A stretch of DNA of 64,000 nt from Candidatus Hermodarchaeota archaeon (GTDB lineage: Archaea; Asgardarchaeota; Lokiarchaeia; Sigyniarchaeales; SOKP01), in assembly GCA_048885525.1 (NCBI GenBank), contig JBHLLP010000005.1, forward strand, positions 1 to 64,000. The letters run 5' to 3'. Positions 1,382-28,562 of this stretch are shown in pieces. A model generated the notes under the pieces. It was not told where the DNA came from. It worked only from the letters and a program-made list of their open reading frames with translations, and made no database searches. Numbering within the stretch: the first letter of the stretch is position 1; every line of letters starts with the position of its first letter. The translations under genes were made by a program, and so were the position numbers.

Positions 1382-1786
1382 ATGATGGCACAATCTAATG
1401 ATGACAAATTACTTTCAAACCCAATTGAGACTCAAGGTTTATTGATTAAACATATTTATAAAAAGTTTGGAAAAGAAGCATTAGGTTTAAAAATTAAAAA
1501 AAAACTGCCAAATAACAACTTAACTACCGTTGCTAAAGCATTTTCGAAGAGTTTTAACCAAAATTTTGTTAAAGTAATTTCGATTTCAGATGAAAAATTC
1601 CAGATTCATGGCACTAAATGTCCATTTGAACTTGAGAATACCTTTAGAGAATTATGTGAAGTCGTTATGACTATTGATCATGAATATTTTCGCGAAGCTG
1701 TTAATAAAAAGATCGAACTAAAAATTATAAAAACTATTGCAGCAGGTGATCCTTATTGTGATACTATTTATGAGATACAGAGATAA
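1382..1786 (+). CDS. ATC-hydrolase/V4R-like small ligand-binding protein, possibly internally deleted
   Basis: KCPF..ELCEVVMTID..TIAAGDPYC cysteine pattern. Confidence 0.55.
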   Translation: MMAQSNDDKLLSNPIETQGLLIKHIYKKFGKEALGLKIKKKLPNNNLTTVAKAFSKSFNQNFVKVISISDEKFQIHGTKCPFELENTFRELCEVVMTIDHEYFREAVNKKIELKIIKTIAAGDPYCDTIYEIQR

Positions 1787-1812
1787 TCAAATTTTTAGGG
1801 ATATTATATATC

Positions 1813-2628
1813 ATGATTTTAGAGAAAACTGTTAATCTCGTTAAGCAAATATATAAAATTCATAAAATTATTCCCCCTCAAATTACAAAAGTAGTTATTG
1901 GATTAGGTTATACTGGTGTGGAAGTTACAGCTTATGCCTATGAACCATTTTTAGGTTTAGCTTCAACTTTACCGAGTGTCATAAAGACAGCTAATTGTAG
2001 TAAGATCAATTTTGCTGGTGAACTTACAAATCAACCACTCACTAAACTTTTAGATTGGTCTATTAAATCCCCCAGTTTAAAAAAAATTATTGGAATTGCC
2101 ACTTTAAATGGTATATCTCAACATATATTAAAAATAATAAATCCCTATAGAAAATTTGAAGAAAAAAATTTAGTAAATATTGTAAAAGTTAATAGAGATA
2201 CTAAAATTACATTTATAGGATTAATCAAACCATTAATACGAGAGATCCACAAAATAAGTCCTTCAATTATAGTAATAGAGGATAGTATTTCAAATTCTTC
2301 AGAATTTAAGGATATAATAATCAAAAATAGTATCGATCAATTAGAAAAAGAAGAGACTCCAACTGATATATTAATTTGTACTGGAACCACTTTAATTAAT
2401 AATACTCTTGAGTCTATTTTAGAGATATTCAAAAAAAAAGCTCGAAAAATAATTTTAATTGGTCCTACTGCTAGTATGATACCCGATATCTTGTTTGATT
2501 ATGGAGTTGATATAGTCGGAGGAATAGAAATATTTAATTCAGAAGCTACCTTAAAAATTTTGCAAGAAGGAGGGGGAACAAAATTATTTAAGAAATATGG
2601 AAAAAAATATAATTTGATAAAAGAATGA
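1813..2628 (+). CDS. DUF364-family Rossmann-like protein
   Basis: IGIATLNG, DILICTGTTLINNTLESIL, IGPTASM and FDYGVDIVGG motifs. Confidence 0.8.
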   Translation: MILEKTVNLVKQIYKIHKIIPPQITKVVIGLGYTGVEVTAYAYEPFLGLASTLPSVIKTANCSKINFAGELTNQPLTKLLDWSIKSPSLKKIIGIATLNGISQHILKIINPYRKFEEKNLVNIVKVNRDTKITFIGLIKPLIREIHKISPSIIVIEDSISNSSEFKDIIIKNSIDQLEKEETPTDILICTGTTLINNTLESILEIFKKKARKIILIGPTASMIPDILFDYGVDIVGGIEIFNSEATLKILQEGGGTKLFKKYGKKYNLIKE

Positions 2629-2669
2629 TACGATATAACTAATGAAATTTCTATTCAAATTTATACAAA

Positions 2670-2978
2670 TCATAAACCTTTCATTTGTAAATAAACCCAA
2701 AATAATATTAATACTATTAATGCAACCCCAATTATTGTGATTAAACCTATTATAAAACAAAATATCTTAGGAAAGAAGGCAAGTATCAAAAATAATAATC
2801 CAATTGCAATTATAAAAATGATTATTAAATTTCTACTAGCGTTCCCTCTTTTTTTCAATGCTGTATAATCAAGTTCCATACCACAATTAGAACAAAAATC
2901 TTGCTCGTACCGATATATTATCGTTTTAGTACCGCATTTTCGGCACTTCACCGGTTCTTTACTTCTATCATATGGCAT
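2670..2978 (-). CDS. Zinc-ribbon membrane protein
   Basis: CRKCG..FCSNCG followed by two hydrophobic helices. Confidence 0.7.
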   Translation of the reverse strand: MPYDRSKEPVKCRKCGTKTIIYRYEQDFCSNCGMELDYTALKKRGNASRNLIIIFIIAIGLLFLILAFFPKIFCFIIGLITIIGVALIVLILFWVYLQMKGL

Positions 2979-3285
2979 GGAATATACATTAAGATTAAAG
3001 GATTATTAAATATTTCTTTAGATATAAGAGTCTTTTAATTAAAACTTCTTATTCTTTATTTCTCTATAATAGTTCATAAACTATTAGAGAAATTTACATG
3101 AAGACTGTGGCGCATAATTATTTAGAAAATATAGAAAAAAATATAAATTAATTAAGGATTAAGTTGTTTTAATACTAGATTGAAATAAATTAATTTTATA
3201 AGAAATCAGCAAGTCTAAATTATAATTTCACGAAGTTTTTAATCTTTGAAAAAACCAATACTGTGTTAGAGAGAGTAAATAAAAA

Positions 3286-3816
3286 ATGTCTGAACAAGTA
3301 TATTCATTTAAATTGATCGTAATTGGTCCAGCAGCAGTAGGAAAATCAAGTCTTATACGTAGATTTGTGGAAAATAAGTTTTCTTTACATTACAAATTCA
3401 CTATAGGAGTAGATTTTATGACAAAAACTGTAGAATATGAATCAGGGAAAGCTGCTAAACTTACATTATGGGATATTGGAGGTCAAGAACGGTTTAAAGT
3501 ATTACGTAGAAGTTTTTATGAGGGAACAAATGGAGCTTTAGTTGTTTTTGATCTTTCAAGAGCAAATACTTTTCTGAAAATGAAAGAGTGGCTTTCAGAT
3601 GCTCGCCAATCTATTGAAAATAATTTCCCTGTCATAATAATTGGAAATAAGTTAGATTTAATTCCGGAAATTGGAGAAATAATAGATAGAAATCAGCCTT
3701 TACAATTTGCCAAAAACGAAAATAGCATTTATATTGAAACTTCTGCGAAGACTGGTGAAAATGTCGATAAAGCTTTTCTTGATCTTACTTTAAGGATGGT
3801 GAAAAAATTCGCTTAG
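3286..3816 (+). CDS. Rab-like small GTPase (copy 1)
   Basis: G1 GPAAVGKS, G2 TIGVDF, G3 WDIGGQERF, G4 GNKLD, G5 ETSAK. Confidence 0.95.
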   Translation: MSEQVYSFKLIVIGPAAVGKSSLIRRFVENKFSLHYKFTIGVDFMTKTVEYESGKAAKLTLWDIGGQERFKVLRRSFYEGTNGALVVFDLSRANTFLKMKEWLSDARQSIENNFPVIIIGNKLDLIPEIGEIIDRNQPLQFAKNENSIYIETSAKTGENVDKAFLDLTLRMVKKFA

Positions 3817-9881: not shown

Positions 9882-12644
9882 ATGACTGAATCTGATAAAA
9901 AAGCAGCTGGTGATAAAATCAAGGGAACAACTTCAATAGAGTTGCTTAAAAAAGTAAATACTGCTGCTAACTATTGTTATAATTGTAATCGTTGTAATAA
10001 TGTATGCCCAACCGCTTTTCTTGATATATTTTATCCTCGTAGCCTAATTACTGATTTAACTTTTCTCACACCAGAAGAGGCATTACAGAATAATGATATT
10101 TGGAAATGTCTTACCTGTGGTTTATGTTCCATTTATTGTCCTATGACTAAAGAAAATACTGGAGTCAATTTCAATCAAATCATTAAGGATCTCCGCTCCC
10201 TTGCTTCAGAGTATAAACCATTACAAGATGGATTGTTAAGCTGTAATCATGAAAGAGTGTATTCGAGTTTACCAAAATTAATGGCTGAAGATAAAATCAA
10301 ATTTACGAATAAAATAGGATTTCTAAAGGGAACAGGATTAAAGACAGCCGAAAAAGGAGAAATTGGTTATTTTATGGGATGTGTACCATTCTTATCAGGG
10401 ACTGCTCCCTGTGTCGTTGGATGTCCTGCTGGAGTTGACGTCCAAGGTTATGTATCATTAATAGCAGAGGGTAAATACCAAGAAGCTTTAGATCTTATAA
10501 GAGAAACAAATCCATTGCCCTATTTATGTGGAAGAATTTGTACAGCTCAATGCGCATTAAATTGTAATCGTCAGCATTTAGATGATCCAATAGCTATCCG
10601 TGAACTTAAACGTTTTGTTTGCGATTGGGAATCTAACCATCCAAATCAGAGTAAAATAAAACCAGTACCCCAAACTAAAGAAAAAGTTGCTATAATTGGA
10701 GCTGGGCCAGGTGGATTATCAGCAGCGTATTTTCTCGCAAGAATGGGATATAAACCAACAGTTTTCGAAAAAGGTGATAAAACTGGAGGAGTGGTAAGAT
10801 ATGGAGTTCCACAATATAGGCTTTCTGATGAGGCTCTTGATTATGATGTAGAATTTATAAAAAGTATGGGAGTAGAAATTGTTTTAAAGAAAGAATTTGG
10901 ACCAGATTTCACCTTGGAAGACATTTGGGAGCAAGGATTCAAAGCCGTCTTTTTAGCAGTAGGATTATATGTCCCGAAAACTTTAAGACTTGAAGGGGAA
11001 GATTTGCCTAACGTCGATGTGGGATTAGATTTTCTTTTAGAACGAAAATATAAATGTTCAGAAAACCCAGAAGAATTTAAAGGTAAAACATTTGGTATTT
11101 TAGGAGGTGGTGCTGTTGCTGTGGATGTTGGAGAAACTGTTCTTCGATTAGGCGCAACTAAAGCTCATCTTGTAGATATATTATCTGAAGAAGCTTTAAA
11201 AAATGTACTTAAAGACATACATGAAGCTGAAAAAGAAGTAATGCAGTATCATTTTGAGACATCAACAGTAAAAATAACTAAAGAACCAGATGGAAGATTA
11301 GCCTTAAATTGTCATAAAATTGAATGGGGTAAGCCTGATCCCAAAACTGGAAGACGACCCCTCAATAAAATCGAAGGTTCAGAGTTTAAAATTGTTGTTG
11401 ACCGTGTTGTAATAGCTATAGGTCAGGCGCTTGATCCAGAACCACTCCTTGCCGCAACGGATAACCAATTAAAAGTTGAAAGGGGTAAAATTGTAGTTGA
11501 TGATTTAACTTACGAAACGGGTATTCCAGGATTTTTTGCTGGCGGTGATATTATTTATAGTTCATTAATGTGTGCTGTTGATGCTATTGGAGATGGTAGA
11601 GAAGCAGCTTATACAATTGATCGTTATCTTCGAGGTCTCGATTTAAAAGAAGGAAGAATAAGAAAGAATGATCTAAAAAGGTCCACTATTCCTAAAAAAT
11701 ATATCCTCACTCAATCATGTCAAGACATGAATTTCATGCCTAGTTCTGAGAGATTAGTCTGCTTTGACGAGATGGAATTAGGTTTTACTGAAGAACAAGC
11801 CAAAAAAGAAGCTAATCGATGTTTAAACTGTAATTGTTGTTGTAATACTGACCAGATACCTGAAGATTTTGAAAAAGCACTAGACGATTCAGATGTTATG
11901 GTATGCGATTATGGAAGTCAAGATACTTGGTCCTCAATAAATGCACCTAATTATTATGAGATACCCAAGAGTGTAATTGGTCTATTAAATCAAAATGATA
12001 TAATTCCAGTTGTTCTACCACAAGAAAAATGCTGTGGACATGATAGTGTTTGGCAAGGAGATGTAGGTACATTTAAAGCTTTAGCAGAATATAATATAAA
12101 ATTATTTAAAGATGCTGGAGTCAAAACTATAATCTTTAGTTGCGCTGAAGGATATTATACATGGAAAAATGATTATAAAAAGCTATTTGAAGGTAATAAT
12201 GAGTTTGATTTTGAGATTTATCATATTACTGAATATATTCTTAAAAAAAATCTCTTAGAAAATATAACATTTCCAACTTTTGACAAAATCAAAGCGACTT
12301 ACCATGATCCATGTAGACTTGGGAGATTGAGCAATATTTTCGATGCACCACGCGATGTATTGAAACTTATACCTTCTGTTGAATTAGTTGAAATGGAAGA
12401 TTCTAAGCAAGATGCAGATTGTTGTGGCGTTTCTGCATATATTTCTTGCAATCAAGATTCAAAAAAATTCCAGGAGAATAAGATTTTGCAGGCGATAGAA
12501 ACTGGAGCAGAATACCTTATTACCGCATGCCCTAAATGTATTACCCATTTAAATTGTTATCTGAATGAAAATAGAGAATTAAAAAATAAAATAAAAGTCA
12601 CAGATATTTTAAGTTTCATTGGAAAATTACTCTTTCTACTTTAA
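9882..12644 (+). CDS. HdrD-like protein (2x[4Fe-4S] plus CCG domains) with an inserted GltD/NfnB-like FAD/NAD(P) module
   Basis: CYNCNRCNNVCP and CLTCGLCSIYCP; APCVVGCPAG..CGRICTAQC; IIGAGPGG; GFFAGGD; EKCCG, YHDPCRLGR, DCCG and TACPKC. Confidence 0.88.
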   Translation: MTESDKKAAGDKIKGTTSIELLKKVNTAANYCYNCNRCNNVCPTAFLDIFYPRSLITDLTFLTPEEALQNNDIWKCLTCGLCSIYCPMTKENTGVNFNQIIKDLRSLASEYKPLQDGLLSCNHERVYSSLPKLMAEDKIKFTNKIGFLKGTGLKTAEKGEIGYFMGCVPFLSGTAPCVVGCPAGVDVQGYVSLIAEGKYQEALDLIRETNPLPYLCGRICTAQCALNCNRQHLDDPIAIRELKRFVCDWESNHPNQSKIKPVPQTKEKVAIIGAGPGGLSAAYFLARMGYKPTVFEKGDKTGGVVRYGVPQYRLSDEALDYDVEFIKSMGVEIVLKKEFGPDFTLEDIWEQGFKAVFLAVGLYVPKTLRLEGEDLPNVDVGLDFLLERKYKCSENPEEFKGKTFGILGGGAVAVDVGETVLRLGATKAHLVDILSEEALKNVLKDIHEAEKEVMQYHFETSTVKITKEPDGRLALNCHKIEWGKPDPKTGRRPLNKIEGSEFKIVVDRVVIAIGQALDPEPLLAATDNQLKVERGKIVVDDLTYETGIPGFFAGGDIIYSSLMCAVDAIGDGREAAYTIDRYLRGLDLKEGRIRKNDLKRSTIPKKYILTQSCQDMNFMPSSERLVCFDEMELGFTEEQAKKEANRCLNCNCCCNTDQIPEDFEKALDDSDVMVCDYGSQDTWSSINAPNYYEIPKSVIGLLNQNDIIPVVLPQEKCCGHDSVWQGDVGTFKALAEYNIKLFKDAGVKTIIFSCAEGYYTWKNDYKKLFEGNNEFDFEIYHITEYILKKNLLENITFPTFDKIKATYHDPCRLGRLSNIFDAPRDVLKLIPSVELVEMEDSKQDADCCGVSAYISCNQDSKKFQENKILQAIETGAEYLITACPKCITHLNCYLNENRELKNKIKVTDILSFIGKLLFLL
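12603..12644 (+). repeat. Gene-tail direct repeat A1 (3' end of the hdrD-like gene)
   Basis: GATATTTTAAGTTTCATTGGAAAATTACTCTTTCTACTTTAA matches 14556-14597 at 33/42 nt. Confidence 0.85.
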
Positions 12645-12761
12645 ATTATTACTATTTCAATATTTTTAGTACTAATATTTTTAACTTTATATATAAACTT
12701 AAAAAGAATAATAACTTAAAGTAATGTCAAAGGGTAATTTTCAAAAAAATTATTGATAATT

Positions 12762-14546
12762 ATGAGTGAAAACGAAATAGCATGGGATTTAAGCGAAATA
12801 TTTTCAAGTTGTGACGACCCTAAAATTTCAAGTACTATGAGTACACTTTTGGAACAAGCAGATGAACTTGCTAATGAATTTAAAGGAAAAATGAACTTAC
12901 CCTCGTTTTCAGCACAAAATTTAAATGTTCTCTTAGAAAAACAAGAAAAAATTCTAGCTTGTGTTGAAGAAATTGAAACTTTTTCATTCAACTCATTCTA
13001 TGCTAATATGATGTTGCCTGAAACTAAGGCTTTGTATAATAAATTTATTGATTTTAAAGGTACGATAACCAAGAAATTAGCATTCCTCGAATTAGAAATC
13101 GGTAAGCTTCTTAGCAACAATCCGCAGATGCTAGAGGAGGAAATATTAAGTAATTATAGAAATTATCTTAGAAAAATAATGAGAAAGTTTCCTTATAAGC
13201 TGACGGAAACAGAAGAACAGTTAATTCTAGAAAAAGATCAGTATGGGGTCAAGGCATGGCAGCAATTAAGAGATTCTTGGATAAGTGGGCAAAAATTTAA
13301 AGTTATTGTTGAGGGGAAGGAAGAAATAATATCTCCTAGTGAAGTATTTTCATTAATGCGACATCCCGATAGACAAACTAGAACGTCCGTCTTCCATGCA
13401 AATTGTGAATTCTTGAAAGACAATGAAAGAGTATATTCAACAGCATTACGTAGTATCTGTGGTGATTGGGTAAAAACTTCAAATCATAGACATTATGATA
13501 GTCCAATCCATCAAAGTCTTATTGAAAATGAGACTACTCGAAAAATCATTGACAGTATGATGAAATCAGTCGAGGAAAGCATTGATTTATGGCAAAGGTT
13601 CTTAAAAATCAAAAAAAACCTGTTCGATCTACCAAAACTGGGTGGTGTAGATACATGGGCGCGTTTACCTTCAAAGAAAAAATATTCATGGGAGGAAGCA
13701 AAGGAATTCATAATTCAAGTATATAATACGTTTGATCTTTCATTCGGAGAAATTGTAAGAGATATTTTCAACAGAAATCATATAGATGCTAGTGCTCGAG
13801 AAGGGAAAGCAAGCATGATTTACTGTCAAGAATGGTATAATGGAAAATCAGCTTTTATTTTAACCACCTTTAAAGGAACTCTAGGAGACATTGTTCCACT
13901 TGCTCACGAGTTAGGACATGGAATTCATTTTTATTTATCTTCTCGAAATCAATCATTTATAAATTATTTTCCAACCTTAACAGTGATGGAGACCGCTTCA
14001 ATTTTTGGTGAATTATTAATGACAGACTTCTTACTTAAAAACACTCAGTTAACCAGTGAAAAAGTAGCATTGCTTTATAATCAACTAAATTGGGTTGGAA
14101 TTACTATTTTCCTACTAAGTGCAAGAATGTGGTTTGAACAGAGTATTTATGATGCAATTATGAATGGAGAATTTTTAGATGGAGAATTGATTTCAAAGTA
14201 TTGGTGTATTGCCAGAGATAAGATTTATGGAGATTCTGTAGAGTGGTTTGATGAGATGAAATGGGAATGGGCTGCTGTGACGCATTATTTCCTAACAGAT
14301 AGAAGATTCTACAATTATCCATATGTTTATGCCCAGCTTTTTGTTTATGCATTATACCAAACTTACAAAAAAGAAGGCGAAGCATTCGTTCCAAAATTTA
14401 AAAAACTTTTAAGCGCTGGGAGCAGTTTATCTCCCGATGAGCTAGGTAAGATCGTGGGTTTGGATGTAACTAAACCTGATTTTTGGAAACATGGAATGAA
14501 ACAATATAAGCAATTTGTAGATGAGTTAGAAAAACTTACAAAATAA
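12762..14546 (+). CDS. pepF: Oligoendopeptidase F (M3B family)
   Basis: WDLSEIF N-terminus, HELGHGIH zinc motif, ETASIFGE and FYNYPYVYA. ATG 12762 chosen over TTG 12753. Confidence 0.92.
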   Translation: MSENEIAWDLSEIFSSCDDPKISSTMSTLLEQADELANEFKGKMNLPSFSAQNLNVLLEKQEKILACVEEIETFSFNSFYANMMLPETKALYNKFIDFKGTITKKLAFLELEIGKLLSNNPQMLEEEILSNYRNYLRKIMRKFPYKLTETEEQLILEKDQYGVKAWQQLRDSWISGQKFKVIVEGKEEIISPSEVFSLMRHPDRQTRTSVFHANCEFLKDNERVYSTALRSICGDWVKTSNHRHYDSPIHQSLIENETTRKIIDSMMKSVEESIDLWQRFLKIKKNLFDLPKLGGVDTWARLPSKKKYSWEEAKEFIIQVYNTFDLSFGEIVRDIFNRNHIDASAREGKASMIYCQEWYNGKSAFILTTFKGTLGDIVPLAHELGHGIHFYLSSRNQSFINYFPTLTVMETASIFGELLMTDFLLKNTQLTSEKVALLYNQLNWVGITIFLLSARMWFEQSIYDAIMNGEFLDGELISKYWCIARDKIYGDSVEWFDEMKWEWAAVTHYFLTDRRFYNYPYVYAQLFVYALYQTYKKEGEAFVPKFKKLLSAGSSLSPDELGKIVGLDVTKPDFWKHGMKQYKQFVDELEKLTK

Positions 14547-14555
14547 CTGATAATC

Positions 14556-14597
14556 GATCTTGTTAGCTTTATCGGAAAACTACTCTTTTTAGTTTAA
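14556..14597 (+). repeat. Gene-tail direct repeat A2 (orphan copy)
   Basis: Reads DLVSFIGKLLFLV* against DILSFIGKLLFLL* at the end of the hdrD-like gene. Confidence 0.85.
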
Positions 14598-14798
14598 TTT
14601 ATCTATATAATATATTTTATTTACAAATTTGTAAATTCATTGACTTCAAATTACTCTTTATTCTCTATGTTTTATGTTTAGATATTTTAAACAGAGACTT
14701 TTTTGGACTTAAGAAGAAACCTAATAAATATTGATACTTTATTTTTTCATAATTATTTTCTATCAAAAAATAACTCATAAATAATAGTGAATTTTGAA

Positions 14799-16724
14799 AT
14801 GAGTAAAACTAAGGAAATAGCAGTTCCTGATAAAGTAAAAGGTTTTACCCAAGTTCGACTTGACGTTGATCTAACAGATGGAAAAATTAGCAAAAGCGCA
14901 TTATCTAATGAATTCTGTCGCGATTGGATTGGCGGTTACGGTTTCGGTGCAAAAATTCTTTGGGATGAATGTCCTGCTGGTGTAGACCCATTAAGCCCTG
15001 ATAATGTTTTCGTTTATGCACAAGGGCCCTTTCCAGGAACAATCTTACCTACTTCTAGTAAATATGGAGTATTTGCTAAGTCCCCCTTAACAGGAATGTT
15101 TGGGATGGCAATCTCTTCTGGATCTGTTGCTGCTCAAGCTAGACGTGCTGGAATTAATACGATTGTGGTTAAAGGTAAAGCATCAGAACCTGTTTATATG
15201 GTTGTTGATGATGATGATTATTATTTAGTACAATGTAAAGATACATTATGGGGGAAAGGATGCTGGGAAACAGAAGAAATTCTGAGAGATGAATTTCAGG
15301 ATCATCGTCTTGGAATACTGACTATTGGTCCAGGAGGAGAACGCGGAGGTCATATGGGATGTATTACTAATGATCGCAATAGACAAGCTGGAAGAACTGG
15401 AATGGGTGCAATTATGGGCTCAAAGAATCTTAAAGCGATATGTTTTAGAGGAACCAAAGGGATTAGTGTTGCTCGTCCTGTTGAATTCTTTAAATTAGCA
15501 AAAAAGTTAATAAAAGTAGCAAATGGACCTGCTACTGCTAAATATCGTGATTTAGGCACACCTGCCGGTATAACCAGTTATAACAAGCTTGGAATGATGC
15601 CCACTTTTAATCATCGTGAAGGCACATGGGACAAAGTTGACGATGGAACCTTTACAGGTGATACACTTAATCAAGATTGGGTTGTAAAGAAAGTTGCGTG
15701 TTCTCAATGTTCTATAGCTTGTGATCACATAACGAAGATACCAAAAGATCATCCACATTGGCCTAATCTCTATTCAAGTATCGATCAAGAATTATGTTAT
15801 AGTTTTGGATCTGCATGTGGAAACTATGATTGGCCAACTGTATTCAAATGTGTGTCATTAACTGATGATTTAGGTGTTGATGCAATAAGTGCGGGAGTAA
15901 CAGCCGCAATGGCATGTGAATGCTATGAAGAAGGGATTATAACAAAAGATGATTTAGGTTATGAATTACCTTTTGGATCTACAGTTAATCTCGTAAGATT
16001 CACAGAAGAGATGATTCTTGGTAAGGGATTTGCAGGTAAGATTTTTGGAGATGGAACACGTGAAGCGGGAAAACGTTTAGAAGAAATGGGTAGAAAAAAT
16101 GCAAGCTACTATGGTATGCATATTAAAGGCTTGGAAATACCCGCTTTTGATGTTCATGGTATGAATAGTTTTGCAGTTGGAATGAGTGTATCTATTCGCG
16201 GTGCATGTCATCTAAGGAATGGTTCTTATGGACTTGATGCTAAAGGTAATTTTGACCGGTTCGGTTATGACAAACCTGTTGAAAGAGGTAAAGCAATTAA
16301 AGATTTAGAGGATATCTATGCCATTATTGATTCTTATATAGTGTGTAAATTTACTCGAGGTATTTATGAAAATGACGCTGAAATGGCTAAAGTATTTGAA
16401 TTAGTTACAGGAATCCCCGTAACTGATAAATTTATAGCACATAGAGGAGACGCAATTGTTACACTTTCGAAGTGCTTTAATATTCGAGAAGGATGGACTA
16501 GAGACGATGATAAACCTCCCGAGCGATTCTTCAAGCAACCACATACAAAGGGACCAGCTAAGGGAGTTACTTTAAAGGAAGATGGCTATCAGAAACTTTT
16601 GAGTGGTTATTATGAAGCTCGAGGCTGGGACACTAAGACAGGGATTCCAACTGATGCAACTTTGAAATCTCTTGGATTAGATTTTGTAATTGGTAAATTA
16701 AATGTCGCGGGAGGGAAGAAATAA
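14799..16724 (+). CDS. aor: Tungsten-type aldehyde:ferredoxin oxidoreductase family protein
   Basis: DPLSPDN, KSPLTG, AGRTGMGAIMGSKNLKAI, CSQCSIAC, GVDAIS, RGACH and YYEARGWD. Confidence 0.92.
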   Translation: MSKTKEIAVPDKVKGFTQVRLDVDLTDGKISKSALSNEFCRDWIGGYGFGAKILWDECPAGVDPLSPDNVFVYAQGPFPGTILPTSSKYGVFAKSPLTGMFGMAISSGSVAAQARRAGINTIVVKGKASEPVYMVVDDDDYYLVQCKDTLWGKGCWETEEILRDEFQDHRLGILTIGPGGERGGHMGCITNDRNRQAGRTGMGAIMGSKNLKAICFRGTKGISVARPVEFFKLAKKLIKVANGPATAKYRDLGTPAGITSYNKLGMMPTFNHREGTWDKVDDGTFTGDTLNQDWVVKKVACSQCSIACDHITKIPKDHPHWPNLYSSIDQELCYSFGSACGNYDWPTVFKCVSLTDDLGVDAISAGVTAAMACECYEEGIITKDDLGYELPFGSTVNLVRFTEEMILGKGFAGKIFGDGTREAGKRLEEMGRKNASYYGMHIKGLEIPAFDVHGMNSFAVGMSVSIRGACHLRNGSYGLDAKGNFDRFGYDKPVERGKAIKDLEDIYAIIDSYIVCKFTRGIYENDAEMAKVFELVTGIPVTDKFIAHRGDAIVTLSKCFNIREGWTRDDDKPPERFFKQPHTKGPAKGVTLKEDGYQKLLSGYYEARGWDTKTGIPTDATLKSLGLDFVIGKLNVAGGKK

Positions 16725-23041: not shown

Positions 23042-23500
23042 ATGGCAGAAGCAAATGATATTAAAATAATTGTTTATGCTTGCTGGAAATGAGGTTATGG
23101 TTCTGCTGATATGGCTGGTACTATTAGAGCACAATATCCAGATTCGATTAGAAATGTTTTAGTACCATGCTCGGGACGTGTAGGATCAGACTTAATAATG
23201 CGAGCATTTGGAAGAGGTGCAGATGGAGTAGTAATTAATGCTTGATATCCAGGTGAATGTGATTATGAAACAGGAAATTACCACGCATATAGACAAGTTG
23301 AATACGTTAAAGAAATTTTAAGAGTTGTTGGTATGAGTCCAGAGAGAATTAAGATAATCTACTGTACTGCTGCTGAAGGTCAAAAATTCCAAAATGAAGC
23401 TATAGAAATTGATAAAATAATCAGGAAATTAGGACCAAGTCCTCTACGTACAAAAGGCACACCTAAAAAAGAAAAAGCTAAGGCGAAAGCTAAAGCTTAA
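23042..23500 (+). CDS. mvhD: MvhD/VhuD [2Fe-2S] hydrogenase subunit D, selenoprotein (152 aa; Sec at codons 17 and 68)
   Basis: Missing from the ORF track. Translates as MAEANDIKIIVYACWK-U-GYGSADMAG..VPCSGRV..GADGVVINA-U-YPGECDYETGN..GMSPERI..CTAAEGQKF..LGPSPL. TGAs at 23090-23092 and 23243-23245. GAGGT RBS at 23030-23034. Ends in TAA. Confidence 0.93.
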
Positions 23501-23582: not shown

Positions 23583-23689
23583 AAAAATGGTTTGATAAAA
23601 TTTAATATAAATATTTATAATTTATTTTAAAAAATTTGGGAAATTTAAGAAAATATAAAAGTATTGTAAATAGTTAGAGTTGGAATTAC

Positions 23690-24829
23690 ATGGAAGCAAT
23701 GGCAGAATATTTGATAAAGATTGAAGATTTCCCCAAAATCTTGGCAATTTTACTAAAAGAGAAAACGGTAGACAAAATTATCGGTGCTGAATTGAGAGTT
23801 GATAAGAAATCTGGTAATATAGATAGATTTACTGTTCAGCCTAAGTTAGCAGAAAAAGAGGAAGATCTAAAGGATTTTCCATTAACTCCTTTAATTGCAT
23901 TTGGATATGCTAGAACTGATTCTGCTTCAAAATTTTTACATAAATCCGTGGAGGGTGCAATGAAGGAGAAAGTAGGTCTTATTGCACGGCCATGTGATAC
24001 AAGAGCATTAATTGAGCTTGCTAAAATAAAACAGGTAAATCTTGATAATCTTTTTATAATTGGTATTGAAGATAGAGGGATGCTTCCTAAAGCAGGAAGA
24101 GAGATGAGATCTATTAAAGATGTTGATCCTATTAAAATCCTTAAAGAAAAAGTTGGAGATAAAGGTCTTATTGTCAAGATGGAAGATGGAACAACTAAAG
24201 AGTTAGAGCTTACTGTTGCTGAGAATTGTTTGAGATGCTATCGAAAAATTCCAGTTATAGCGGATTTAACTGTTAGCGATCTTGGTATTCCAGTTGATTC
24301 AGACGAGATAATTTTAAAGGTATATTCAGATAAAGGAAGTGAGATTCTAGAAAAATCAGGTGTAAAAGCAAAAACACTACCAGATAAAGAAAAGAAAGCT
24401 CATCTAGCAAAATATACTGAAATAATCGATAAAGCAAAAGAAAAGCGAACAAAGGATTTAGAAGAATGGGAGAAGCTTTCACAAGAAGAAAAAATAGCAG
24501 AACTTCTTAAATGCACGATGTGCAACACTTGTATAAGAGGATGCCCAGTTTGCTACTGTGTGGATTGTATTTTGCAGAAAAAGAGAAAGGCCAAAAACAT
24601 TGATAAAGCAACATATCAATTAACGCGTATAGCACATGATGCTGATAGATGCGTAGAATGTGGAAACTGTGATAATAACTGTCCTCAGAATCTACCTTTA
24701 TCACTATATTTTCAATCATTAAATGAAGCCTTTAAGAAGAAGTTTAAATACGAGGCAGGCATGTCTCTTGAGGATATTCCGTTTCGATCTGGAAAAGCAA
24801 TTTCCCAGATGGAATTAGAAAAAACATAA
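23690..24829 (+). CDS. FdhB/FrhB-family flavin/Fe-S subunit
   Basis: ARPCDTRALIEL, CLRC..ADLTVSD, CTMCNTCIRGCPVCYC and CVECGNCDNNCP. Confidence 0.85.
   Translation: MEAMAEYLIKIEDFPKILAILLKEKTVDKIIGAELRVDKKSGNIDRFTVQPKLAEKEEDLKDFPLTPLIAFGYARTDSASKFLHKSVEGAMKEKVGLIARPCDTRALIELAKIKQVNLDNLFIIGIEDRGMLPKAGREMRSIKDVDPIKILKEKVGDKGLIVKMEDGTTKELELTVAENCLRCYRKIPVIADLTVSDLGIPVDSDEIILKVYSDKGSEILEKSGVKAKTLPDKEKKAHLAKYTEIIDKAKEKRTKDLEEWEKLSQEEKIAELLKCTMCNTCIRGCPVCYCVDCILQKKRKAKNIDKATYQLTRIAHDADRCVECGNCDNNCPQNLPLSLYFQSLNEAFKKKFKYEAGMSLEDIPFRSGKAISQMELEKT
24788..24829 (+). repeat. Gene-tail direct repeat C1
   Basis: TCTGGAAAAGCAATTTCCCAGATGGAATTAGAAAAAACATAA matches 28521-28562 at 37/42 nt. Confidence 0.9.
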
Positions 24830-24921: not shown

Positions 24922-26193
24922 TTATATGTATGAACTAAAGAGACTTATTATTTTTGGAAACATAGTCTCAATTAGAGATTTTGATGTATTATTTACTATA
25001 GCATCTTTAATAATGTGATTTATCTCATCAATAGTCCTATCTCCCAATAGTAGTTTAAATAAAAGTGCTCCAGGAATCATGAGGTCAGTAGTTCTAGGAT
25101 TTGGATATTCTTTTTTAATTTCAATTTTCTCGATTTTTCCGTTATTAAAAGTTAATACAATAGTTTCATTATAATTGCTAATTCTTATAGTTTTAGTTAG
25201 TCCTTTAAATTCAGAATGATTTAGTCTCCTTTCAATTAAATTTTTTACAAAGTGAAAAAACTTTTTTAAATTTGGAATTTTTACTTGCCATCCATAGGTT
25301 GAAACTGGTTTTCCCCCTAATGATTTGATATAATCAAACAATGGTGAATGTTCACTAACACTAAATGTGATTACATCATTTGCTTTATACTTTCCCATCT
25401 TTTTAATAAATTGAAGCAAGCTTATCATCTCGTTTTTAGATAAATTAGGAGTAGTTATTTCATAATTTTGATTATCATAACTCATTCCAACAGAAAAATA
25501 ATTTGTGGGGATACTAAGTTCATTAAAAATGTAAGTGGATCGAACTTCTGAATTAAATATATCATTTAAGTATTTAAATTTAAAAGATTCTGGTTCAAAC
25601 CTGTTAAAGATATAGAAACGCTTATGGAATTGATTATATTTTGTTTTAATAAAAGAAAGGTCCTTAGAATTAGCTTTTCTTATGTTAAGGTTCTCATATT
25701 TTTTATTAGGGATTTTGGATGCTGGAATCGCTATTCTTTCATCGAGAGATGAAACATATTCATATCCTAACTTACGATAAAAATAGGGGATACCTCTTAT
25801 AACTGAAAGAATATAACCATTTTGGTCAATTATTTTTTCATAAAGCTTGTTTAAAAGTTTAACGAAGCCTTTTTCTCTATATTCTTCAAGAGTTCCAACA
25901 AATTCCATTTCACATATTGGTAATGGAATGTCTTCAATTTGCCATTCTATAGGAGATAGACATATCAAAGAGATTAGTTTATTTAATTTATCATCCTTGA
26001 TATATAACCACAAAATCTCATTTCTTCCCGGATGTTCTAAAAAAATATTTGGAATATAAGTCTTTAATACCTCTTCTTGATGAACTTCCATACTAAAATT
26101 AACTATAGATTTTAATTCGTCTTCGCTATCAGCAGCAATGTGAATACTGTAGCGATCATCGATTTTCGCAATATAACCTTTTCGAAATTCCAT
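24922..26193 (-). CDS. Eis-like GNAT acetyltransferase
   Basis: EFVGTLEEYREKG, GIPYFYRKLGYEY and an SCP2-like C-terminus. Confidence 0.8.
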   Translation of the reverse strand: MEFRKGYIAKIDDRYSIHIAADSEDELKSIVNFSMEVHQEEVLKTYIPNIFLEHPGRNEILWLYIKDDKLNKLISLICLSPIEWQIEDIPLPICEMEFVGTLEEYREKGFVKLLNKLYEKIIDQNGYILSVIRGIPYFYRKLGYEYVSSLDERIAIPASKIPNKKYENLNIRKANSKDLSFIKTKYNQFHKRFYIFNRFEPESFKFKYLNDIFNSEVRSTYIFNELSIPTNYFSVGMSYDNQNYEITTPNLSKNEMISLLQFIKKMGKYKANDVITFSVSEHSPLFDYIKSLGGKPVSTYGWQVKIPNLKKFFHFVKNLIERRLNHSEFKGLTKTIRISNYNETIVLTFNNGKIEKIEIKKEYPNPRTTDLMIPGALLFKLLLGDRTIDEINHIIKDAIVNNTSKSLIETMFPKIISLFSSYI

Positions 26194-28520: not shown

Positions 28521-28562
28521 TCTGAAAAAGCAATTGCCAAGATGGAATTAGAAAAAATTTAA
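28521..28562 (+). repeat. Gene-tail direct repeat C2 (orphan copy)
   Basis: Reads SEKAIAKMELEKI* against SGKAISQMELEKT* at the end of the FdhB-like gene. Confidence 0.9.

Follow-up and report, generated by a model that had tools for sequence, protein, structure and literature searches.

An HdrD/GltD-like gene (hdr) has its end represented twice in the window, by which we mean the whole 64,000-nt stretch of DNA that was analysed: once as the working tail of the gene and once as an orphan tail, which lies behind an intact peptidase gene (pepF) and in front of an aldehyde:ferredoxin oxidoreductase (AOR) gene. The orphan is probably (at about 0.6) the scar of one-ended recombination with the DNA of a pepF-bearing relative, in which an illegitimate joint at ~14547-14549 displaced the native end of hdr.

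Results

Structure of the hdr-pepF-AOR locus

The hdr gene (9882..12644, plus strand), the hdrD-like gene of the preliminary description, is an ORF of 920 aa. Pfam searches gave CCG (1.8e-25), Pyr_redox_2 (3.9e-24), Fer4_20 (2.4e-22) and Fer4 families, and the domain layout comprises 2x[4Fe-4S], a GltD-like FAD/NAD(P) domain and two HdrD/HdrB-type CCG domains. By its domains the predicted product is an HdrD/HdrB-type CCG protein fused to a GltD-like flavoprotein. Its relatives from Promethearchaeota/Lokiarchaeota are named in the databases 'heterodisulfide reductase-related iron-sulfur binding cluster' or 'FAD-dependent oxidoreductase'. The genome contains one full-length copy, and orthologs with 72-90% amino acid identity are present in 42 of 53 other genomes of the genus. 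The working tail occupies 12600..12644 (plus strand) and reads T DILSFIGKLLFLL and stop, the last 14 codons being 12603-12644.

The spacer behind hdr (12645..12761, plus strand) contains a conserved pepF upstream block and aligns with the hdr-pepF spacers of 11 pepF-bearing relatives. The intact pepF gene (12762..14546, plus strand) encodes an M3-family oligoendopeptidase F-like protein of 594 aa from the ATG at 12762, with an HELGH motif, Peptidase_M3 (1.4e-31, residues 201-582) and Peptidase_M3_N (2.2e-9). The catalytic domain, the HExxH motif and the N-terminal domain assign the predicted protein to peptidase family M3 (oligoendopeptidase F / PepF); it is 59-70% identical in amino acids to the same-locus copies of relatives. 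Further to the right, all on the plus strand, follow the trinucleotide CTG (14547..14549), the orphan tail (14550..14597), the AOR upstream region (14598..14786) with a palindromic box ACAAATTTGTAAA at 14623-14635, and the conserved right-hand neighbour, the AOR gene (14787..16724; AFOR_C 2e-98, AFOR_N 2.6e-63; relatives 78-95% identical in amino acids). The AOR upstream region was conserved with either hdr or pepF in front of it, in an alignment of 20 loci.

The tail pair is real

Behind the pepF stop (14544-14546), positions 14556-14597 translate in the same frame as DLVSFIGKLLFLV and stop. The repeat is slightly longer than had been described, the orphan reading LIIDLVSFIGKLLFLV and stop, or I IDLVSFIGKLLFLV and stop from 14550; it aligns with orthologous tails from ATC GAT onward (14550/14553). 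The open in-frame stretch upstream of it is only 17 codons long, and the appropriate annotation for 14550-14597 is a gene fragment, neither a small ORF nor a regulatory repeat.

A direct count between 12603-12644 and 14556-14597 gave 9 mismatches in 42 nt, with five synonymous codon differences (AGT/AGC, TTC/TTT, ATT/ATC, TTA/CTA, CTA/TTA) and three conservative ones (I/L, L/V, L/V), the same as in the preliminary description. The differences fall on first, second and third codon positions 5, 0 and 4 times. This pattern had been taken as the clue to capture of pepF; the idea of capture is supported, mostly by other evidence, while the pattern alone is a weak guide to it (0/9 at second positions, p = 0.026 under uniformity).

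In a repeat search the tail pair was the longest direct repeat in 11500-15500 (47 nt, 79%), the longest identical runs between the copies being 8 nt (TACTCTTT) and 6 nt. When the 42-nt tail was compared with both strands of the 3.58-Mb genome (~7.2 million positions), the orphan, at 33/42, was the sole non-self match above 29/42. With an nhmmer profile built from 44 orthologous 60-nt gene ends, the only match outside true gene ends was window 14540-14597 (E = 3.8e-12; next E = 0.64). The local score of the pair was reached by 0 of 1000 shuffles. Chance is excluded as the origin of the pair, because the genome-wide match count, the gene-end profile and the shuffles all single out the orphan.

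The structure is no product of misassembly. Independent Logan contigs from the likely source run cover 12569-13793 and 14375-14900 with zero differences, a check that rested on contigs and not on raw reads. A contig of a run from another study matches 14429-14579 without a difference, passing the joint by 30-33 nt, which makes it a borderline bridge. That the assembly is a chimera of two co-occurring strains is extremely improbable. The source sample does contain relatives, with contigs that leave hdr at 12600 for a different tail and then orphan-like sequence (depth 7.5, shorter side 26 nt), and Logan contig depth is 28.7 before 12593 as compared to 21 for the next contig. Against a chimera, both junctions are bridged by independent Logan contigs and the pepF-orphan junction also by the run of the other study; this joint has no shared long word able to mislead an assembler, and identical hdr and pepF proteins are recorded from two or three ~119 kb contigs. 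The sum of depths, 28.7 = 21 + 7.5, was considered as a sign of a pepF-less strain with an identical hdr and was set aside, since it consists of contig depths only and involves the 26-nt side.

Two haplotypes at the locus

Orthologous loci were compared in relatives. Among 44 loci, hdr stands directly before AOR in 22, an intact pepF follows hdr in 13, one has a pepF remnant, seven carry other cargo and one is cut by a contig end. Conservation of pepF at this place throughout the clade, which would have spoken against capture, is not what is seen. The orphan and its downstream DNA match, in colinear order, the hdr end, the spacer and the AOR promoter as found in the 22 pepF-less relatives; the distance from the orphan stop to the AOR start is 190 nt, and that from the hdr stop to AOR in these loci is 163-284 nt. 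Twelve pepF-bearing relatives show such colinearity with the working tail, the spacer and pepF, which continue the hdr reading frame. The alignments show colinearity with two haplotypes, hdr-AOR on the one side and hdr-pepF-AOR on the other, although the type of tail does not split cleanly by pepF presence.

A second tail was searched for in the 43 other loci by regular expression and by the nhmmer profile, and none was found; the window alone has one. The usual spread of pepF at this locus appears to leave no scar, because the 12 other pepF-bearing genomes lack an orphan. The nearest relative of both flanks, G009 (hdr 86.6% identical in nucleotides, AOR region 87%, further right 86%), has no pepF at the locus. 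In G059 an internally deleted pepF remnant is found, and G010 has two tandem pepF copies. As judged from the loci compared, the hdr|AOR junction is a hotspot with differing cargo in differing species.

The arrangement could also be read as the remnant of a second complete hdr, a xenolog that arrived with AOR and whose body was deleted down to its last 51 nt. The orphan is indeed a bona fide gene end followed by a normal spacer and AOR, and the locus is prone to insertion and deletion, as the deleted pepF of G059 and the tandem pepF of G010 illustrate. We regard this reading as very improbable: two events are needed, one of them a deletion that starts by coincidence 3 nt after the end of pepF; between pepF and the orphan there is no further trace of hdr; and a tandem hdr occurs in no relative.

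The right joint lies directly behind pepF

The position of the right joint is shown by comparison with relatives on both of its sides. The sequence TAACTG after the pepF stop is common to G041 and G046. Homology to the metagenome contig L103, which carries the same pepF unit, stops at 14548, and hdr-tail homology begins at 14550/14553, so that the CTG at 14547..14549 marks the putative illegitimate junction between the pepF unit and the displaced gene end. Extended similarity between the pepF end and hdr was not found, and the right joint involves no homology or a few bases. A candidate microhomology, AAAATAA, between the pepF end and hdr was rejected; it is one base out of register and conflicts with the shared TAACTG.

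The working tail is the more derived copy

Of 117 clusters, the window's own 90% cluster is the sole one with exactly the ending of the working tail, and the next closest ending is TDIVSFLGKLLFLL. No database ortholog outside this cluster ends in TDILSFIGKLLFLL, and the donor was not found. Orthologs with endings of the orphan type do exist, e.g. IIDLVSFIGKLLFLI and VIDLVSFLGKLLFLV, as the preliminary description had anticipated. When sliding windows were used to look for the donor of this tail, no genome stood out, the best reaching 81-83% over the last 48 nt and 82% over the last 60-nt window. The orphan is 88% identical to the tail of G015 and 85% to those of G005 and G066, and of 44 ortholog tails compared, 32 are closer to it than to the working tail.

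A recombination breakpoint within hdr had been proposed. The expected fall in identity is present at 12600: relative to G066 and G005, the 200 nt before the working tail are 93-94% identical and the last 48 nt only 77%. In 14 other genome pairs taken as a control (upstream 200 nt 90-98%), three also drop to <=77% in the tail. A left breakpoint at the tail start is suggestive, and it is not decisive because 3 of 14 comparable pairs drop similarly and the tail is a fast-evolving segment.

Synonymous differences were compared next to those of the gene body, the tail values resting on ~11 sites. Between the working tail and its nearest relatives they amount to 0.56-0.74 per site, and in the preceding 600 nt to 0.35-0.56. 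The orphan behaves much like the hdr body (0.37 vs 0.35 for G005/G066, 0.46 vs 0.39 for G047), whereas the working tail stands at 0.65-0.74 from these three genomes, about double. At synonymous sites the orphan lies nearer than the working tail to five of the seven nearest relatives compared (G005, G066, G047, G009 and G015); the gap is small for G006 and opposite for G059. Of the 9 differing sites, 6 have the derived state in the working copy. The two tails differ to the extent that tails of separate species do (79% identity, against a median of 75%).

That the orphan is in a coding-like state is shown by its comparison with the 44 orthologs: it is legal at all 14 positions and the stop, every state being seen among them. 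When random substitutions were simulated, tails were still legal in 4-5% after three changes, in <0.7% after five and in <0.1% after 7-9. The claim that both tails diverged while still coding, in different lineages, is supported by the colinearity with two haplotypes, the legal orphan, the more derived working copy and the orphan-type endings among orthologs. For the first three of these reasons a drifted target-site duplication is unlikely as the origin of the pair.

An in-place duplication of the gene end at insertion, as a long target-site or a tandem duplication followed by divergence, is likewise very improbable. Distance alone would allow an old duplication, the distances being roughly star-like: 21-23% between working tail and orphan, 21% between orphan and G009, 29% between working tail and G009. 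Neighbouring tail copies also exist at another gene in G011 and, as a tandem copy, in C20. Nevertheless, a neutral orphan with 9/42 differences should have lost its legality, as the simulated frequencies indicate. The copy under constraint would also need to have evolved faster, with derived states at 6/9 sites (p = 0.003-0.03 if its share of changes is 0.2-0.3). The G011 pair represents two allele types, not the drift of a single copy, and the block yielded neither a transposase nor terminal inverted repeats.

The roles of the two tails may instead be reversed, with the hdr ending in the TDIL tail and pepF as residents and the orphan as a foreign fragment from a pepF-less relative. Such a fragment would start 51 nt before its hdr stop, be anchored by homology in the AOR promoter or AOR, and be joined illegitimately behind the pepF stop. 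No coincidence would then be needed between the left crossover and the insertion point. The endings that most resemble the working tail (TDIVSFLGKLLFLL, and in G059 IDIVSFLGKLLFLL) are those of close relatives, and no other proteins are closer to the window's hdr than the ones ending in TDIVSFLGKLLFLL (88.5-88.8%). The working tail could thus be native; G059 is a relative of these proteins and carries a pepF remnant, hence the pepF haplotype existed in the clade. In comparison with G059 the working tail tracks the hdr body (0.56 vs 0.52) and the orphan is more distant (0.80). Next to the AOR start, ~95 nt match G041 and G013b almost perfectly, whereas the whole AOR region is 82% identical to G041, which suggests a recent short import on the AOR side. 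Set against this are the greater closeness of the orphan to most of the nearest relatives and to most ortholog tails, the AOR region and rightward DNA, which like hdr are nearest to G009 with no long foreign tract visible, and the pepF unit, which is the demonstrably mobile part. A reversal of roles is therefore judged unlikely.

The pepF unit occurs at a second locus

The scan of metagenome contigs yielded four loci, of which L103 is the sole informative one. It carries the same pepF unit, 94.4% identical over 12653-14548, at a different locus with neither hdr nor AOR. The homology starts on the left at ~12653 in pairwise alignment and at 12636 by blastn. The pepF genes of L103 and the window are 90% identical in amino acids and 94% in nucleotides, with dS 0.125 and dN 0.043; for hdr against any sampled species dS is 0.65-0.9. 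Of the other three, L104 has the common hdr-insert-pepF-AOR arrangement, L105 contains a pepF fragment (74%) and neither hdr nor AOR, and L106 shows distant similarity (46%). The scan of genome contigs with pepF gave two Heimdallarchaeum loci only, at 46-47%.

L103 is a probable member of the genus. It had been considered a distant organism from flanks of ~40-50% amino acid identity to the window's genome, a notion that was dropped since the flank is an accessory region 89-92% identical to six same-genus genomes. The pepF unit lies there inside a 2.58-kb indel in an A-rich spacer and has no tail-like repeat. An imperfect direct repeat around it was tried as evidence of a duplicative mechanism and discarded; 17 of 1000 shuffles reach its score, and the empty sites show an A-rich overlap only. 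By comparison of the two contexts, the pepF unit is shown to be mobile between loci.

The right end of the L103 homology (14548) coincides with the joint in the window. This is not predicted by an arbitrary illegitimate break.

Mobility of the unit brings into consideration the Campbell-type integration of a circular pepF cassette carrying a mimic of the hdr tail. The two tails would then be attL and attR, and the crossover would rely on short homology or on a site-specific recombinase provided in trans. This would explain automatically the common start of both tail copies, the pepF units of the window and of L103 stop at one and the same point on the right, and the architecture is that of icd ... 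e14 ... icdC (PMC13626634). As with integrative elements, a replacement 3' end is supplied and the native end displaced. Integration of this type is nonetheless improbable: pepF is the sole gene in the block, and integrase is absent there and in the cargo of the other scars of this genome, which flank unrelated cargo behind unrelated genes. Identical runs between the copies are <=8 nt, although old sites could have drifted. The second tail is missing from the 12 other pepF-bearing loci, and the unit in L103 has no tail-like repeat, its weak flanking similarity being within the reach of shuffled sequence.

Similar scars recur in the genome

Orphan-type tail copies were counted throughout the genome. 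Ten lie downstream of genes and four upstream, all four of the latter from one repeat locus; there were none on the opposite strand and none among decoys. In the window, a second scar at 28521..28562 (plus strand) is an orphan copy (37/42) of the tail of an FrhB-like gene (23678-24829), beyond 3.7 kb of cargo with a GNAT-domain gene and a TPR gene on the minus strand. The site is empty in G054. In G011 both tail types are present in the opposite order and only ~60 nt apart; they are different allele types, each a working tail in other genomes. The tandem tail copy of C20 lies 33 nt downstream. No recombinase gene was detected in any cargo examined (12, then 11 proteins scanned), and neither was an integrase or a transposase. 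These counts show that such scars recur.

Discussion

We infer that the orphan is the native tail and the working tail the foreign one, and the route below is proposed on that footing. A pepF-less chromosome of the window's lineage would have taken up DNA from a pepF-bearing relative. On the left side the incoming DNA would have paired with the hdr-like gene; from ~12600 the last 15 codons of the donor gene, the spacer and pepF would have been copied or integrated. The right side, having no homology, would have been sealed illegitimately three bases past the pepF stop, at a point of the recipient 45-51 nt ahead of its own hdr stop. As a result hdr would have remained complete with a foreign, homeologous tail, followed by pepF with its own upstream region, and the native tail would have been shifted 1.95 kb downstream, non-coding and directly before the intact AOR promoter. 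The locus agrees with such one-ended recombination in that the insert runs, on one side, without interruption into sequence homologous or homeologous to hdr and is joined at the other end without homology or with a few bases of microhomology.

The donor part and the retained native tail may share their start because a break in the last ~50 nt of hdr was repaired by one-ended invasion of a homeologous template and then end joining. The route would be homology-facilitated illegitimate recombination or a synthesis-dependent repair of such kind; the former has reportedly been studied by de Vries and Wackernagel in 2002, by Prudhomme et al. in 2002 and by Meier and Wackernagel in 2003, as cited in PMC5361080. 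Short, diverged duplicates would persist, recombination between the copies being inefficient, and a survival bias for them would explain why the scars are 36-94 nt long. The finding also indicates that the hydrophobic C-terminal tail of the redox protein is selected strongly enough for only those insertions to survive that restore it.

If the preferred reading is right, the scar places the entry of pepF into an Asgard chromosome within a few bases, with one homologous side, one illegitimate joint and no mobile-element enzyme. DNA exchange in these uncultivated relatives of eukaryotes is little known. Small, directional scars of this kind can be searched for in any genome, and such a search would yield counts, donors and relative ages of gene gains. 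More tentatively, tail displacement might be a regular, recombinase-independent route by which Loki-type Asgard archaea acquire accessory genes of related species. It would begin with a break or a one-ended invasion within the final 40-100 nt of a conserved gene, through which a relative's gene end is copied together with its cargo while the native end stays behind. Were this true, the scars could serve as dated, oriented records of inter-species gene flow in a group without a known DNA-exchange mechanism.

Comparison with known systems

Transposable elements produce target-site duplications that are short and, at their formation, identical. Here too direct repeats flank inserted DNA. Unlike such duplications, the repeats are 45-51 nt long and 79% identical with coding-like differences, there is no transposase, and no terminal inverted repeat was found at the two block ends.

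Prophage e14 lies in icd of E. coli K-12, where the insert supplies a diverged working 3' end and the native end remains at the far side as the icdC pseudogene (PMC13626634); as here, the tail differences are mainly synonymous or conservative. Unlike e14, a 15 kb element that has its own site-specific recombination system and excises, the present insert is 1.9 kb long and holds one gene and no recombinase.

Homology-facilitated illegitimate recombination has been proposed for the orphaned 3' modules of T6SS, Rhs and CDI loci, with clean replacement without an orphan as the commoner outcome (PMC5361080). Those orphans resemble ours in having one homologous anchor, foreign cargo, an illegitimate second joint, a displaced 3' orphan and no integrase, and in the rarity of the orphan, here 12 pepF loci without one and one with. 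The settings differ, the host being an Asgard archaeon and not a transformable bacterium and the mechanism being deduced from sequence alone; in addition, unlike orphan immunity genes or toxin tips, the displaced piece is 45-51 nt long and has no function of its own. By these analogies the scar would belong to an already known kind, with icd/icdC and orphan Rhs/T6SS ends, and what is new is this instance, together with the pepF unit in a second genomic context (L103) and the ten downstream orphan tails of the genome.

The two hdr tails around pepF

The 920-aa hdr gene of the window (9882–12644, + strand), which encodes 4Fe-4S motifs, a GltD-like flavoprotein module and two HdrD/HdrB-type CCG domains, is followed on the same strand by pepF, an M3 peptidase gene of 594 aa (12762–14546), and by the aldehyde:ferredoxin oxidoreductase gene, AOR (14787–16724). 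hdr ends in the working tail, DILSFIGKLLFLL and its stop (12603–12644, +). A second copy of this end, the orphan, DLVSFIGKLLFLV and its stop (14556–14597, +), starts nine bases 3′ of the pepF stop. Read at full extent, the orphan is LIIDLVSFIGKLLFLV and its stop, so that the part common to both tails is 45–51 nt; the direct-repeat search returned the pair as 47 nt at 79% identity. A recount gave the figures of the preliminary description: nine mismatches in 42 nt, with five synonymous and three conservative codon differences. Of the nine mismatches, five fall at first codon positions, none at second and four at third.

The match between the tails is not due to chance. In the 3.58-Mb genome (G+C 29%), searched on both strands, the best non-self match was the orphan (33/42) and no other exceeded 29/42. 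A profile of 44 orthologous gene ends matched window 14540–14597 with E = 3.8e-12, the sole match outside true gene ends, and the next had E = 0.64. As to the reality of the structure, independent Logan contigs from the likely source run match 12569–13793 and 14375–14900 without difference. A contig from another study's run covers 14429–14579, also without difference, and reaches 30–33 nt past the joint, which is borderline for bridging. In contigs of co-occurring relatives, hdr runs through other tails into orphan-like sequence, a weak indication with only 26 nt on the shorter side. Records from two or three long contigs carry identical hdr and pepF proteins.

The pepF stop is in frame with the orphan (14544–14597), and read-through would add 17 residues; this phase has a chance of one in three. 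The orphan retains a T5 run (CTCTTTTTAG) which the working tail does not have, and one may speculate that it serves pepF as a termination signal.

Divergence of the tails as coding sequence

The synonymous and conservative pattern of the nine differences had been put forward as the main clue to mechanism. The pattern is present, but alone it is weak: finding no second-position difference among nine has p = 0.026 if all positions are hit uniformly, and the code itself makes first-position changes in NTN codons conservative. Four independent results support the claim that both tails diverged while coding. All 14 positions of the orphan, stop included, show states found in the 44 orthologues. In simulations with random substitutions, tails were still legal in this sense in 4–5% of cases after three changes, in <0.7% after five and in <0.1% after seven to nine. 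The orphan has thus accumulated very little drift since selection last acted on it.

Of the nine sites that differ, six show the orthologues' commoner state in the orphan and three show it in the working tail. If insertion had begun with two identical copies, the working one, being constrained, should carry the minority of changes; a working tail derived at at least six of nine sites has p = 0.003–0.03 for an expected share of 0.2–0.3. Orthologous tails are nearer to the orphan than to the working tail in 32 of 44 comparisons (mean identity 77.3% and 73.1%), the best identities being 88% for the orphan (with G015) and 83% for the working tail (with G064). Orphan-type C-termini, looked for among orthologues as the preliminary description had proposed, are present (IIDLVSFIGKLLFLI, VIDLVSFIGKLLFLI and VIDLVSFLGKLLFLV), and among the 117 clusters the exact working-tail ending is confined to the 90% cluster of the window itself. 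These results make it unlikely that the pair arose as a target-site or tandem duplication that then drifted, because the orphan is legal, less derived and closer to orthologue tails, and because orthologues with orphan-type endings exist.

The hydrophobic C-terminal tail of hdr (last 14 residues; consensus about IDxVSFLGKLLFLx) is kept across more than 100 of the 117 protein clusters compared, some of them at about 60% identity. This conservation suggests a functional role, perhaps in membrane or partner binding, which would explain the survival of tail-restoring insertions only.

Arrangement of the hdr–AOR locus among relatives

Orthologues of hdr are found in 42 of 53 other genomes of the genus (72–90% aa identity), and 44 loci were examined, the window among them, with some genomes giving more than one contig. 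hdr is directly followed by AOR, 163–284 nt away, at 22 loci; intact pepF lies 3′ of hdr at 13 only, so that pepF is not conserved at this place across the clade, a point on which the capture model had been staked. One locus (G059) has a pepF remnant, seven have other cargo between hdr and AOR and one is cut by a contig end. The intact-pepF loci include that of G007, with 2.5 kb of other genes between hdr and pepF. The other cargo comprises beta-helix/NosD proteins with zinc ribbons, a beta-propeller protein, a PIN protein and DUF1847; a flavodoxin gene is found in the extra DNA of G007 and also 3′ of pepF in G008. No integrase or transposase was found among the cargo genes of these loci. The arrangement counts mark the hdr–AOR junction as a hotspot for insertions, at which two haplotypes predominate. 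None of the 43 other loci has a second hdr tail.

Several loci have features of their own. G010 carries two tandem pepF copies 3′ of hdr, 67% and 62% identical to that of the window. G059 ranks among the closest relatives of the window. Behind its hdr come the pepF upstream block and, immediately after that, pepF codons from ~533 on; most of the gene body up to about that codon is deleted, and the contig stops there (3′ end). The hdr orthologues of G022 and G042 have one in-frame stop each (TAG and TAA, respectively) in an otherwise full-length match.

The window combines both haplotypes. The part from the working tail through the 118-nt spacer to pepF aligns with pepF-bearing loci; the part from the orphan through the 190 nt behind it aligns with pepF-less loci, matching their gene end, spacer and AOR upstream region. 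Seven pepF-bearing loci besides the window's extend as far as AOR, and in these 175–227 nt separate the pepF stop from AOR, the same spacing as from the hdr stop in pepF-less loci; in the window the distance is 241 nt, made up of 190 nt plus the 51-nt scar. Sequence comparison places the right joint at 14547–14549, since TAACTG 3′ of the pepF stop is common to the window, G041 and G046 and similarity to hdr tails begins at 14550/14553.

A conserved palindromic box, ACAAATTTGTAAA, lies at 14623–14635, ~150 nt before AOR. It has a counterpart at this position in about 15 of the 20 loci aligned, whichever gene stands upstream, and may be a regulator site. The ~100 nt adjoining the AOR start occur as two haplotypes across the genus, and the version in the window differs hardly at all from the sequences of G041 and G013b.

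Probable origin of the two tails

Over the 200 nt that precede the tail, G005 and G066 match the window at 93–94%, and G066 is identical to it along one stretch of 60 nt; identity falls to 77% in the last 48 nt of hdr. Against five of the seven nearest relatives compared, the working tail has 0.65–0.74 synonymous differences per site, about twice those of the preceding 600 nt. The orphan tracks the gene body, with 0.37 versus 0.35 synonymous differences per site for G005 and G066 and 0.46 versus 0.39 for G047. The nearest relative of hdr, of the AOR region and of the DNA further right alike is G009 (86–87% nt), whose locus is pepF-less. Together these three comparisons favour a pepF-less recipient with the orphan as its native tail. 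Several points limit this reading: equally low tail identity is seen in 3 of 14 other-genome pairs with comparable upstream identity, the tail has only about 11 synonymous sites, and G059 shows the reversed relation of the tails. Moreover, the endings most like the working tail, TDIVSFLGKLLFLL, whose proteins are 88.5–88.8% identical to the window's hdr, belong to relatives of G059, the bearer of the pepF remnant.

Mobility of pepF

Every copy of window-type pepF in species representatives is at the hdr–AOR locus, and these copies are very diverse (60–84% aa identity to each other). A second, core type, 50–57% identical to the window's pepF, lies elsewhere in most genomes. It was not found in the 99%-complete genome holding the window, where its expected position next to a GltD-like gene on contig C52 falls beyond the contig end; pepF matches in that genome are limited to the window copy and, where contig C33 ends, a partial paralogue at 29%. 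Among database proteins, P0133 is a pepF match at 90.7%.

A metagenome contig of 4049 nt, L103, carries at 1600–3494 a pepF unit 94.4% identical in DNA to window ~12653–14548, from nine bases 3′ of the hdr stop to two bases 3′ of the pepF stop. Both hdr tails are outside this common unit. L103 has no hdr before the unit and no AOR behind it, and no tail-like duplication around it; its flank is an accessory region, 89–92% identical to six genomes of the genus, in which the unit lies within a 2.58-kb indel in an A-rich spacer. The near-complete hdr–pepF spacer indicates that the L103 copy descends from an hdr-linked haplotype. The two pepF copies differ by dS 0.125 (dN 0.043), as against dS 0.65–0.9 between the window's hdr and that of any sampled species. 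Judged from these distances, the pepF unit is mobile, and its move to another place or host is much younger than the split of the species.

Further orphan tails in the same genome

For each of 3177 stop-to-stop ORFs of at least 120 codons, the last 42 nt were sought in the 6 kb downstream (at least 33/42). Ten orphan-type copies, not at the end of a long ORF, and 12 tails of tandem paralogues were obtained. Reversed decoys gave none, nor did the opposite strand. The upstream scan gave four orphan-type matches, all at one repeat locus on contig C31, and ten of paralogue type. At six of the ten downstream orphan-type cases, pepF included, similarity is confined to the last 36–94 nt and up to 46 nt behind the stop; three are too near their own gene to judge, and the tenth is a tandem copy at a distance of 33 nt. 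Same-strand downstream copies (33–37 of 42) were found for genes on C17 (24652–25032, copy at 25965), C33 (12481–11927, copy at 10258), C52 (20345–20821, copy at 23462) and C20 (10424–10050, copy at 10016), and for window gene 1774–2628 (copy at 3121). Among the proteins of their cargo are a TPR protein and a DUF6259 protein; the cargo examined contained no integrase, transposase or recombinase.

The tail scan revealed a second scar in the window. An FrhB-like gene (23678–24829) is followed by 3.7 kb with a GNAT-domain gene and a TPR gene, and then by an orphan tail (28521–28562, 37/42). The working tail ends in AISQMELEKT and the orphan in AIAKMELEKI, each before a stop. G054 has the empty site, in which the gene tail is directly followed by the sequence found behind the window's orphan. 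In G011 the two alleles are in swapped order and only about 60 nt apart, and the orphan has an internal stop.

Proposed mechanism and comparison with known systems

The simplest account would be one-ended homeologous recombination: the hdr side would have paired by homology, and the opposite side would have been closed by an illegitimate joint. If the event started from a break within about the last 50 nt of hdr that was mended from a relative's DNA and sealed by end joining, the tail from the donor and the native tail left behind would share one starting position, which is what is seen. As a recombination scar the orphan is of an ordinary kind; what is unusual is its host. It is informative on how pepF reached its locus, and more interesting as one of a directional set than alone.

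Full-text search, with most subscription journals outside its coverage, found no paper on Asgard illegitimate recombination or on a lokiarchaeal oligoendopeptidase. In architecture, hdr–pepF–orphan is similar to icd–e14–icdC of E. coli (PMC13626634), with the difference that the window locus is without a recombinase. The scheme proposed for the window, with one homologous side and one illegitimate joint, is known from bacteria as homology-facilitated illegitimate recombination, and it has been put forward to explain 3′ modules left orphaned at T6SS and Rhs loci (PMC5361080).
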